From the NCBI GenBank assembly GCA_964016885.1, contig OZ024747.1, positions 9,734,001 to 9,798,000 of the forward strand: a stretch of DNA of 64,000 bases, given 5' to 3'. This document shows, piece by piece, positions 1,331 to 30,910 of this stretch. The DNA comes from Eledone cirrhosa (Eukaryota). Position 1 is the first letter of the stretch, and every line of letters starts with the position of its first letter. The notes beneath the pieces were generated by a model that worked only from the letters and a program-made list of their open reading frames with translations, was not told the DNA's origin and made no database searches. A program made the translations under genes and the position numbers.

Positions 1331-1543
1331 GGAAAAAGTATGACCCCGATGGCAGAGCTCAAGCCGTTCCGACGGCTATTTCTGTACTAAAAAAAAATTT
1401 TTTTAGTACAGAAATAGCCGTCGAAACGGCTTGAGCTCTGCCGTCGGGATCATACTTTTTCCTATTTCCCACTCTACTACCCTAAGTATTGAGTACTCTG
1501 GTGCGTTATGGTCCATCTGGTTCCTTACCACAATTCCTTCGTT
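1331..1543 (+). mobile_element. Family A fold-back miniature element in (TA)n (HHR 3' half)
   Basis: Palindrome 1331-1462 carrying GAA-ACGGC-ttgagctct-GCCGT-C-GGGATC. The unique tail ends ...ccacaattccttcgtt fused to (TA)n. Near-identical copies at 12003, 17909 and 30716. Confidence 0.8.
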
Positions 1544-2375
1544 ATATATATATATATATATAAATATATATATATAAATATATATATATATATATATATA
1601 TATATATATATATATGATGATCATCATTAAACACACACACATATCTGAATGTCACTCTTCTGAAAATTGTTTCTCCAAATTCTTGTCCTAAAAGCGGAAC
1701 TATCAGTGACGTAACACTGTTATGATACCAACAGTCTGTTGAAATAAGCTGCCATATTCTCTGGTAAACAACACACAACACACTTGCAAATAGATGTAAC
1801 TATTAAACTGTTGAGATCTTTATATTGACAGTGGTGGTGGTGGTGGTGGGGAATGATGTCCTCACCCTTCACCTCCCTGGGGGGAGAGGTGCATTTTTAT
1901 TAAGTTGGTGTGTGTGTGTGTGTGTTTGTTGTGGTGTGAGTGTATATGAGAGTGAGTGAGTGTGTTTGTGTGTGTGTATTGTGGTGTGGTGTGCGTGTGT
2001 TAGTGAGTGTGTTTGGGTGTGTGTTGTGGTGTGGTATGTGTGTGTGTTGTGGTGTGAGTGTGATTGAGTGTGTTTGTGTGTAGTGGTGTGTGTTTGTGTG
2101 GTGTGAGTGTGTTTGTGTGTTGTGGTGAGTGTGTTTCTGTGTTGTGTTGGCTGTGGTGTGTGTATGTGACAGTGGTTGATGTGTGTGTGAGAGACTGGTT
2201 TCTTTGTGTAAGAGGTCGTTTTGTATGTGAGACTAGTTTGTGTACATGTGACTCTGTGTGAATCTTTGTGAGTGTGAGTGTGTGTGTGTGTGTGTGTGTC
2301 ACACTGTGTGTGAGATATATTTCAGTGTGACATTATGATAAACCTCTCTGTATGTAAACAATGTCTCCAGAAGTA

Positions 2376-2558
2376 GATTGGCAGTATCGGTAGAGGGTCG
2401 GACGCCATGCTTTGCAGCATAGAATTACGGCTCTTTATGGTCTGAGTTCAAATTCTGCCGAGGTTAACTTTACTTTCATCTTTACGGGGTCGATAAAATA
2501 AAGTACCAGTAATACACTGGGATAATTGCTGGCCTTGTGCCAAAAGTAGAAACAATTA
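2376..2558 (+). mobile_element. tRNA-derived SINE family 1
   Basis: A-box-like TGGCAGTATCGG, B-box GAGTTCAAAT, central (g/a)ctttcatc(c/t)ttacggggtcgataaaataaagtaccag (resembles the Meta-SINE-type domain), ATT tail. Many copies in the window. Confidence 0.8.
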
Positions 2559-2585
2559 TATACAACATTACATAAGATATCTTAC

Positions 2586-2816
2586 AGTATTTATTCTGGT
2601 TGTTTGTATCTCGAGTTCAAATCCTGCTGTGGCTTCTGTGGTAGACTTAACCCATTTTTGACAGAGTCCACTCTGGTGCAAATATTTGAACCATGTCTCC
2701 GGTGTGAGAATACATTGGTCCTTCCTTCCCATTATTCTTGCAGGCTTTGGAATGACATATGATAAAGAGGAGAGCATTGTCTGTGGGACTTGAAGGATCT
2801 TCAGTCCGTCAGACAT
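2586..2816 (-). CDS. Possible coding exon of an unidentified gene
   Basis: ATG-started 77-codon non-repetitive ORF ending at a good donor ACT|GTAAGA (phase 0). An in-phase acceptor (ttgtttacCAG|AGA) near 1762 could continue it. No recognised homology. Confidence 0.25.
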
Positions 2817-2837
2817 TGCTGGACTACTTTACACTGC

Positions 2838-27479: not shown

Positions 27480-27577
27480 ACATCCTCGACTGCGCAGTTT
27501 CGTGGCTACCATGCAAAAACATTACATCGTAGAGATGCTGTATTTTTGTGAGGTTTGCCAACTTATCAAGAGAATAC
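27480..27577 (-). ncRNA. Type I hammerhead ribozyme, U3-A8 core variant, in fold-back element 27411-27805
   Basis: TATTCTC-TTGATAA-GtTGGC...GCCAC-GAA-ACTGCGCAGT-C/GAGGATG. Perfect 10-nt palindromic helix III, GUC triplet. Confidence 0.75.
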
Positions 27578-27977
27578 TTCATTTAAAGTTTCAAAACACG
27601 TCCACAAGGCGTGAGAGAGAATCCTGGAAAGGCGGAGAAGGAACGTATCACGTGATTCAGCGGTCAAGAAACAGAGTTAAGCCTCTTGCAACCAAGAGAA
27701 AAATGCCACAAATGGCGGAGGGGGTATTAATATCTAGGCCACAGACGTCGAAGAATATTTTTATTTATGTCTAATGTTTCTTCTTTCTTTATAATGTATT
27801 ATATATATATATATATATATATGCATTTAAAAGAATTTATTTTAAATGAAGTAGTTCTGCAACCCTTTCCTTATATATATATATATATATATATATATAT
27901 ATCCTTAATTATCAAAGACTGAAATAACTTATTAATTCTTTCTTTTCTTTTTTTGTTTCTTTCTTCCTAAAATCCAG

Positions 27978-29326
27978 ACATCTGAAGAGAATGCTTTGGG
28001 TCAGTCAGCTGCAAAGGCATGGAAATGGTTGAGTAGCTCAACAGCTAATGCCTTACCAAAAGCCAAGTCTGTTGTAGCAAATGTTGCACAGAAAGTGTCA
28101 CCTTCTATTTCACGGTTGGGCACTTCGCTCTCCAAGGCTACACTCGGAGATTCATCAGAATATAAAGTCACAGAAGATATCCTCAATATGGATCAACTAG
28201 CAGACTCTTTACCTCTGTCCAACAGTAATGAAGACAGTGAGTCTGTGTCGAGTACAAGTAACTCTACACTGCTGGGATCTAATGTTGAATCGCCATTAGA
28301 GGTTAAATCAATTACAGAAATGGAAACAATTGATGAGGTTAAAACACAACCAAAGGACTCTAAAACTACAGATAATGAGAAACAAAGTCAAAGCCTTTTA
28401 GATGAGCTTTTCCCTGATGCTAATAAAATCAGTGATGTTGAGCAATCATCTTCACTATCAGTCTCCAATATAGCACACAAGTTTCTCGGAATTGGCACTA
28501 GTAAACGTAAGCAACCATACAGAAAAGAGTTGACTGAGTACAGCTTTGACAGTGAAGCTGATTCTTCTAATTCAATAAAAGAGTCCAACTCTGGCGCAAG
28601 TCTGAAGAATGAAGACATTTCTAGAAAAGGAACATCGCCAAACAAAGCAAGTGAAAGTTTAGTACATGAAGTGTTAGATAAATACTGTGAGGCAAATCCA
28701 ATTAAATCTGAGACAGGTGGACCTAAATCTGATAATAAAAATAATTCCAATAATACCTCTGCTCCAAAATCCTCTGTACCAAAGCTAGAAAGTCAATCAT
28801 CTGCTAATTCATTTGATATCATTAAACTCTTTGACAAGCTTCTGCTTCCGAACAAACCAAATAAAACACCTGAAAGCAAAGTTAATGTTGATGGAGGAAC
28901 TACCTATAGAAACACACCTACTATAAGTGCTTTCAACCTATTTCCATGGGGACAGCCAAATCCCACATCTGAAGATTCAAAATCACCAAATTCTAAGCAA
29001 GAAAGGACTCACACAAACACCAGTAGTGATTCTTCTAGTCAGAATCAAAATACAGCTGTGACCTCAACAATCAAAGCTGCCAATAGCAAAGAGAATAACA
29101 CGAAAGTAACTGCACCTGTAATTACTGAAGAAAAAGGGGATAACAGTGATGACCCCTTTACAACTGGTTCCTCTACATTGTATGAATGGTGTGATATGGC
29201 TAAACCCCAGAACCTCAGTCAAGATCCCTCAGAAGATCACCTTGACCTGCCTTTAGACTCTACCGCTTTGCTACCTTCTAACTCACCAGCTTCTCCCCAA
29301 GATCACTTTAGAATGCCAGATTACAG
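27978..29326 (+). CDS. RUSC2: RUSC-like large exon (Ser/Thr-rich linker, about 450 aa)
   Basis: Polypyrimidine tract plus AG acceptor, 1349-nt open frame, AG|GTAAG donor. Phase 0-2 fits both neighbouring exons. Confidence 0.9.
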
Positions 29327-30715
29327 GTAAGCTTCATAGCTATTCATCTTTCTTTGTTTATCTTTTTTTCTTCTTTGGAGTCAAAATGGAGATAATATTA
29401 ATAATTATTTTTTTTAAAGACATTGACAAGATCCCAGATATCATCCACTTACAATGTTTCTATTGGTCTCTCTATTGCTGATAATATCTACTGGTCACAG
29501 CTCTTTGCAGTGGGAGCAACATGAAATAAAGTGTCTTGCTCAAGGACATAACATATCCGGGAATCAAACTCACAGCTAAGCCAAAAACATCATAAAACCT
29601 GAAAGTGATCAAAGCTATGGAACAATGTATCCAAAAGGTTGAAAGACTGCATTTCATCAGTGGTGTGGTGACATGTGTCTGACCAAGATACTTGATTTAT
29701 TCATAGATCAATTCATCTAATAGTAGATCAATACATCTCTTAGTTAATCAATTCATCTATTTGTAGATCAATTCATCTAGATGTAAATACACGATAGATA
29801 TCAGTGTTCCCCTGTAGATATGTAAAATTAAGTGGTGTAGTCCACTTGGCTGTAAACAGACACCATGTGTTGGTATATTCCAGCTAAGAGTTAATAGGGA
29901 GCCAGTTAAGATACAGTCTAACTGTAAATAAGTACTATGGAGGAAATCCCGCCGAGGTTGGCTTTGCCTTTCAACCTTACGGGGTCGATAAAATAAAGCA
30001 CCAGTAATACACTGGGGTAATTGCTGGCCTTGTGCCAAAAGTAGAAACAATTATTATTACTATCATTGCCATTATAATCATCATTACCATTATGATCATC
30101 AATATCATCATTACCATTATGACCATCACCACCATCATCAATTTTACTAATTCCATTTAAAATTCTGTTAAGTCTTTTCTCCTTAATCTTTGTTTCTAGG
30201 CACTAGTGATGTCCTGGCTCATTGTCACCCTTCATTTCACAGGTAAAATTTCATACAACACATTCCGACCTCTGACCTCTCCACCTTCAAACTTGCTCTT
30301 TGTTTGTCTGGCAAGTCCTGGTGTAGAGAGACTCATTATAACCCCCTCTTCCTCGCCATCACCTGCTTCATACTTTCCTCATTCTTTCTTCTATTCCTTC
30401 TGTCTTAACCTGCTGTAGATGCGCACACACACACACACACACACACACATATATATATATATGCATATATATGTATGAATGTATATATATATATGCATAT
30501 ATATGTATGAATATATATATATATATGCATATATATATATATATATATATGCATATATATGTATGAATGCATATATATATATTTGTAAAAAAGGAAAAGA
30601 ATGACTTCACTTGTAGTTCTAAACAAGTCATTCTTTTCCTTTTTTTCAAATATATCCAACTGTACCAAGGATCTCACACATTTTCCAATATATATATATA
30701 TATATATATATATAT

Positions 30716-30910
30716 AGGAACAAGTAAGACCCCGACGGCTGAGCTCAAGCCGTTTCGACGGCTAATTTTGGAGTCCAGAATTAGCCGTCGAAACGGCTTG
30801 AGCTCAGCCGTCGGGGTCTTACTTGTTCCTATTACCCACTCTACTACCCTAAGTATTGAGTACTTTGGTGCGTTATGGTCCACCTGGTTCCTTACCACAT
30901 TTCCTTTGTT
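30716..30910 (+). mobile_element. Family A fold-back miniature element
   Basis: Near-perfect palindrome 30716-30830 with arms of about 54 bp, carrying GAA-ACGGCT-tgagctc-AGCCGT-C-GGGGTC. The tail is fused to (TA)n. Confidence 0.85.

Follow-up and report, generated by a model that had tools for sequence, protein, structure and literature searches.

Several short mirror-image repeats in a 64,000-nucleotide stretch of the Eledone cirrhosa genome (C7:9734001-9798000 in a genome of 3.0 Gb; this whole stretch is hereafter called the window) are, by the motifs of their parent element, short head-to-head insertions of a Penelope-like retroelement of the Hydra clade in (TA)n tracts. We lean, if only slightly, towards the reading that transcription of this element starts inside its own hammerhead ribozyme, that a downstream copy of the ribozyme cuts in vivo, that the stubs record both of the resulting RNA ends, and that the inverted ends are two joined run-off complementary DNAs (cDNAs) of one sense RNA. 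From the shape of the arms and joints we consider it probable that each of the two target strands primed a cDNA, and that both cDNAs ran off the 5' end of one sense RNA and were then joined. Positions in the element are numbered from the predicted hammerhead cut after GTC, +1 being the first G of GGGGTC and -1 the preceding C.

The first of four copies named in an original prediction, which had been made from the letters of the window alone, starts with an untailed arm on the minus strand (1328..1388, element positions -41 to +20). It is followed by a centre of A9/T7 (1389..1404), longer than the native run of 3-4 nucleotides through either slippage or untemplated A, and by a tailed arm on the plus strand (1405..1465), which runs from -41, the A of an initiator-like motif, to +20 in the order helix II 3' strand, GAAA, helix III, GTC (predicted cut after 1445) and stem I 3' strand. 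An 80-nucleotide tail on one side (1466..1545, plus strand, +21 to +100) completes the copy; it is the stretch with which the next unit begins and precedes the ATG of the open reading frame (ORF). The second copy has its tail (12001-12080) and a tailed arm reaching -35 on the minus strand (12001..12135), and a longer untailed arm on the plus strand (12134..12192, -39 to +20), with an overlap of 2 nucleotides at the joint. In the fourth copy an untailed arm on the minus strand (30714..30772, +20 to -39) meets a tailed arm from -41 with its tail (30833-30912) on the plus strand (30772..30912); the G preceding this arm at -41 is either cap-derived or part of the other arm. The third copy has kept the tail and only +14 onward of the tailed arm (17907..17994, minus strand) next to an untailed arm on the plus strand (17998..18057, -40 to +20), and the GACGGCTA...TAGCCGTC hairpin is absent. 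The description of all four as fold-backs of a hammerhead 3' half thus holds for the copies at 1331, 12003 and 30716 and fails for the one at 17909.

The three fold-backs retain GAAACGGC, the GAGCTC loop, GTC and GGG(G/A)TC, and no YTGANRA core was found in any of the four copies, in agreement with the view that these elements keep the 3' half of a hammerhead and lack its 5' core. As also proposed, the centres of the three differ from copy to copy while the arms match each other within a copy, with a complementarity of 96-98%. All four copies lie in (TA)n and carry the 80-nucleotide tail on one arm only. This one-sided tail, which the original prediction did not mention, is the key diagnostic feature of the repeats.

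Walking upstream led to units with a single ORF of 718 amino acids (locus L115), which by motif encodes a reverse transcriptase, then a CxCX5C linker, then a C-terminal GIY-YIG-type endonuclease. DKT (a modified DKG), the CxCX5C linker, and CxxC and CxH around a conserved E and N, with no CCHH, match the definition of the Hydra clade given in the available text of PMC8557442; at the N-terminal RWK place of that clade the protein reads RWR. Pfam gave no match for three of three proteins, and the domain names rest on motifs and on likeness by eye to Hydra-1_Obim. An assignment to Neptune/Nematis (CX2-5CxxC linker and CCHH) was rejected because the linker is CxCX5C, and one to Naiad because the endonuclease is C-terminal. 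The protein has 2,216 homologues at E<=1e-20 among 7,998 scored. The unit measures 3.1 kb in L115 and recurs with a period of 3.53-3.54 kb in tandem arrays, and is longer than Hydra-clade elements tend to be (<3 kb, as far as PMC8557442 describes them). Two head-to-tail arrays with at least four full units of period 3.53-3.54 kb, C1:91476613-91487266 (L192-L195) and C1:437200344-437210963, are candidate source loci.

An exact 32-nucleotide word of the tail has 33,439 matches in the genome, and 329 matches of the tail extend toward the ORF region. The first 98 of the 33,439 were taken as a tail-selected sample, in which TA repeats follow the tail in 88 copies. The outer ends have constant positions (+20 and +100), and each terminates in TAT next to (TA)n; since both flanks are (TA)n, any target-site duplication is unreadable. 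TA flanks and arm-like ends would also suit a pre-formed palindromic DNA element, resembling a miniature inverted-repeat transposable element, that transposes as DNA and has its centre deleted at a later time, and some identical joints do recur hundreds of times and later microhomology deletions do occur. However, these copies have a one-sided tail where a DNA transposon would carry terminal inverted repeats on either side, their parent codes for a reverse transcriptase and not a transposase, the identical joints recur across subfamily haplotypes and in both orientations, and the two arms of a copy share subfamily variants. We give such a DNA element almost no credence, and the one-sided tail and the parent bear out the original prediction on this point.

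Long copies read ACCCC, TTGANAA, G, a long helix II, C, GAAAC, helix III, GTC and GGGGT. They hold a whole predicted type I hammerhead with a U3:A8 core, a variant already described in the part of PMC4209133 that is accessible. A search for such intact arms gave 6,221 matches genome-wide and none for a control pattern. The pattern itself fixed most core letters; among the first 100 intact arms, 77 were U3:A8, 21 C3:A8, 2 U3:G8 and none C3:G8, and core position 7 took all four bases. The full-length form with CTGANGA that had been forecast is therefore not the one found, and a direct search for CTGANGA returned 39 matches; 20 of these loci were read, and most turned out to be by-products of a junction or to lie in other elements alongside. 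Sister families have a C3:G8 core and compensatory changes in helix II. In 28 aligned arms of 41 distinct ones, 91.7% of 532 helix cells were paired, and three of four folds took the hammerhead shape. In native helix II, CGGCTA pairs with TAGCCG across ~40 nucleotides, and the GACGGCTA...TAGCCGTC hairpin of the window is a product of the inversion and not native helix II. An Rfam scan of the window gave no hammerhead among the 150 matches listed, and only microsatellite-driven microRNA matches below the gathering score. In a prediction for L115:3149-3289, a transcript that begins at -41 refolds, and the helix II strand set free in this way pairs with the helix III strand (GAAA-closing hairpin).

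A pattern for fold-backs at the -41 hotspot matched 14,599 loci genome-wide, and the reversed control pattern none, so that these fold-backs greatly exceed chance. In the tail-selected sample, 64 of the 98 copies fold back with their furthest arm at -33 to -48; the others comprise 8 with a whole ribozyme, 8 that fold nearer, 2 that fold further and 16 without an adjacent inverted arm. The furthest arm ends scatter from -35 to -46 and are most frequent at -40/-41 (29 of 74 fold-backs), so that the proposed fold exactly at helix II was not upheld: the ends are spread, and the hairpin was made by the inversion. Twelve long loci, in which two arms with whole ribozymes lie on opposite strands at a distance of 2-5 kb, have their fold a long way upstream of the ribozyme. 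The A of the motif T(T/C)AGT (-43 to -39) falls on position -41; this motif is conserved while the surrounding loop diverges, and T56 and A58 of this region are invariant in 28 aligned rows. TCAGT/TTAGT serves as an initiator in invertebrates. Some subfamilies have a TATA-like word ~30 nucleotides upstream of -41, and promoters within the pseudo-long terminal repeat (pLTR) have already been published.

The bases inserted between two arms that both end at -41 were tallied. One-base inserts were C/G in 28 loci and A/T in 2, and 8 joints were blunt (first 100 of 1,792 loci). In the AAAT subfamily all 15 of 15 such inserts were C/G, although the native next base is A/T. An untemplated cap-derived base is the published reading for L1 (PMC9341517, in its accessible portion). 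Direct-repeat restarts at -40 to -44 were seen in 5 of 30 loci that continue into the ORF, as if, to judge from their position, templates had been switched by jumps from an RNA end. At C1:27009635 (L185/L186) a 257-nucleotide piece from -44 into the ORF start forms a triple direct repeat in which each restart lies at the hotspot.

A stop at -41 could alternatively be caused by stalling of the polymerase or breakage of the RNA at the helix II apical hairpin, or reflect a splice acceptor (YAG, -42 to -40). An apical stem is indeed predicted at the hotspot, family A, that of the window copies, resembles a 3' splice site, and some arms pass -41. However, 6,221 intact arms pass the site, and sister families keep the stop motif but not the apical stem sequence. 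The arms, moreover, include the AG and add one C without a shared continuation, and the inserts differ between -41 and +1. A stall, break or splice site at -41 is hence very improbable.

The second stop concerns 394 loci with both arms ending near +1. In 31 of the first 50 both arms stop exactly at +1, blunt or with non-native inserts, and the single-base inserts in these 50 were A/T in 8 cases versus C/G in 1, a composition different from that of the -41 class (Fisher p = 6e-6). In a neighbouring control window, -6 to -14 (374 loci), 48 of the first 50 joints were microhomology joints. Given the insert contrast and this control, -41 and +1 appear to behave as a capped and an uncapped RNA end, respectively. 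The +1 class is thus a hint that the predicted hammerhead may cut itself in vivo. The accessible text of the in vitro study of the Poseidon element PAc (PMC11167929) reports no RNA reads ending at the cut site, in contrast to the present genomic class, which ends exactly at the predicted cut.

The two arms of a copy are closely related. Among the 29 of 102 copies with both arms complete enough for comparison, arms differed on average by 1.3 positions within a copy versus 4.5 between copies, and for one three-base haplotype 567 loci were concordant versus 7 mixed. The arms thus cluster within copies, and the proposal that each inversion formed anew at insertion is retained. The mechanism proposed with it was snap-back priming at helix II, in which a single cDNA folds near helix II and copies itself, an idea related to the self-priming outlined in the accessible part of PMC3846280. 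It would explain why the arms of a copy almost always match, and some centres contain templated fold-back inserts. The commonest joints genome-wide share one register, centred between -39 and -38, which a 2-nucleotide mini-loop could also yield. Only the tailed cDNA holds the tail, so snap-back predicts the loop on the tailed arm, but the observed distribution is symmetric. The unpaired bases of the commonest joint lie on the untailed arm in 986 and on the tailed arm in 907 loci, across several haplotypes, and in the sampled fold-backs the furthest arm is the untailed one in 40 copies, the tailed one in 27 and equal in 7. Because either arm can be longer, simple snap-back is disfavoured. In addition, the joints lack the native helix II loop, blunt joints with zero loop occur at -41 and +1, the fixed +20 end is left unexplained, and the stop position is better matched by a probable 5' terminus of the RNA than by a helix. 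Snap-back as the sole route is largely refuted, and we regard it as decidedly unlikely. In a subfamily with the palindrome GTAC at the joint register, 18 of the first 50 loci overlap perfectly on it; the joints of GGAC subfamilies fall in this register too, perhaps via tandem G-A pairs.

Few copies combine an arm that ends at -40 with one that ends at +1: the first 100 of 321 contain ~8 clear and 11 ambiguous cases. If the arms had used independent RNAs, roughly 1,700-3,800 would be expected, the lower figure being a hand correction for pattern stringency. This count bears on a reading in which two RNAs that came from one source locus, underwent like processing and were kept together by a protein (or ribozyme) dimer gave one arm each. 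Such a pair could be held by a protein dimer like the one predicted for a relative (in the available part of PMC11167929) or by pairing of the palindromic GAGCTC in loop III, and would accommodate rare chimeric arms, but both RNAs must nearly always have shared their 5' end. We think it unlikely; it differs from the single-RNA account only in the number of RNA molecules.

From the anatomy of the stubs, the parent element, the end positions, the insert bases and the symmetry and concordance of the arms, we infer the following course for the single-RNA account. The enzyme of the element would cut (TA)n on both strands, so that priming is double-stranded, and one sense RNA would be copied twice from two fixed start sites 80 nucleotides apart (+20 and +100). 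Both cDNAs would run off the RNA 5' end and be joined head to head, by short pairing or blunt. The usual 5' end would be a capped transcription start at -41, inside helix II, and the stubs would lack the 5' core half because the template RNA likely began inside helix II and never held it. A transcript starting at -41 could not cut off its own cap, as its 5' half-ribozyme would be inert and the cap kept. The minority 5' end, at +1, would be made by cleavage at the predicted cut site through a whole U3:A8 hammerhead further down the transcript.

Several observations weigh against this account. Among the sampled fold-backs, 13 of 74 extend beyond -41, and six rare chimeric arms (one of the seven mixed loci was dropped, as it consisted of two adjacent copies) indicate that two templates are sometimes used. 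The junction tallies were counted by eye on the first matches, mostly from contig C1, and not on all of them. The AATT-type rows of the -41 insert tally include one subfamily in which C is native, and the C excess at -41 in two other insert tests (64 of 72 and 51 of 87) was matched by a control at -38 (65 of 82), probably through re-priming at nearby GAC/TTC; these two earlier tests were set aside because of this like excess. As to the ribozyme, the C3:A8 arms (21 of the first 100) form a subfamily with a core mismatch, covariation amounts to only 3 pairs with two-sided change in the 28 aligned arms, from few lineage events, one arm of four folds otherwise, folding z-scores are weak (-0.6 to -2.2), and Rfam gave no hammerhead match at E<=10 in L115:3000-3400.

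The window also contains three diverged copies, which had been listed at 20268, 52072 and 63466 as fold-backs of the same kind and proved to be partial or to fold elsewhere. The first, of a sister family (20270..20400), consists of what is left of an inverted tail and of a sense arm that begins near -35; the second, also of a sister family (52066..52140), folds at -41/-40 with its right arm shortened by (TA)n; and the third (63466..63590, plus strand) folds near -21 to -29 and has a tail remnant. Another fold-back family at 1033-1259 carries a CTGATGA core in each arm, at 1103 on the minus and at 1189 on the plus strand, and ends just past GAAA at an AT run, with a related core at 56105. At 52842-52968 lies a palindrome with 62-bp arms, 97% complementary, each with CTGATGA...GAAAC...GTC; a AGTACTCAATAC-like tail word lies at ~52815, and this is likely another Penelope-like family. 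Opposite-strand CTGATGA...GAAAC motifs at 56208 and 56344 make up another small inverted element. The window further contains a long imperfect inverted periodic repeat region at 3585-4654 (arms of ~240 nucleotides, 70-72% complementary), and weak transfer-RNA-like matches at 15625-15682 and 24858-24915 (28.1 bits, gathering score 29), possibly heads of short interspersed elements.

In L1 twin priming, priming occurs from both target strands and each cDNA represents a different portion of the RNA, whereas here the cDNAs would overlap and both would reach the RNA 5' end. Full-length L1 insertions with a cap-derived 5' G (PMC9341517, accessible text) are similar in having one untemplated base at the RNA 5' end. 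The head-to-head inverted, 5'-truncated copy, the tail at one end, the partial tandems, the (TA)n targets and the pLTR hammerhead are already published features of endonuclease-positive (EN+) Penelope-like elements (available parts of PMC3846280 and PMC8557442). Unlike those described there, the present element has a tail of 80 nucleotides instead of 30-40, and two thirds of the sampled copies are stubs of ~200 nucleotides ending at one site. The self-priming proposed in the available text of PMC3846280 uses an antisense template, whereas the evidence here points to a sense, capped one.

Hydra-1_Obim, as presented in the accessible part of PMC8557442, shares DKT, CxCX5C, CxxC, CxH, the C-terminal endonuclease and (TA)n, and the printed N-terminal part looks similar by eye. 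It is a different family: the supplement does not contain two words of the tail and ORF, and its ribozyme row as published is not the same. The present element also departs from the Hydra clade described there in its RWR for RWK and its unit of 3.1-3.5 kb. PAc in vitro (accessible text of PMC11167929) likewise has two internal reverse transcriptase start sites bounding the tail, both strands being cut and extended, an AT-rich target and a ribozyme upstream of the start sites; that text does not resolve the inverted arm and joint, and cleavage was unnecessary in vitro. The same catalytic-core swap occurs in the U3-A8 hammerheads of Schistosoma Cercyon (PMC4209133, available part), but those ribozymes are minimal, whereas in the present one helix III has 5 bp and a palindromic loop, and helix II, which contains the putative start, is long and made of two parts. 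The architecture, the clade, the variant of the core and the pair of start sites are already in print. Our literature search, which covered openly available papers and for the most part went no further than search listings, showed for these elements neither a start inside the ribozyme, nor the contrast between cap and cut, nor a symmetric joint of two cDNAs.

The formation of Penelope-like inverted ends and hammerhead cutting in vivo are stated as open in the accessible parts of PMC8557442, PMC11167929 and PMC3846280. With its tens of thousands of copies, the family yields single-base predictions for these steps, namely a transcription start at -41, a cut at +1 and reverse transcription starts at +20 and +100. 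Its insertions also scatter short hairpins over this genome, roughly one in every 200 kb.

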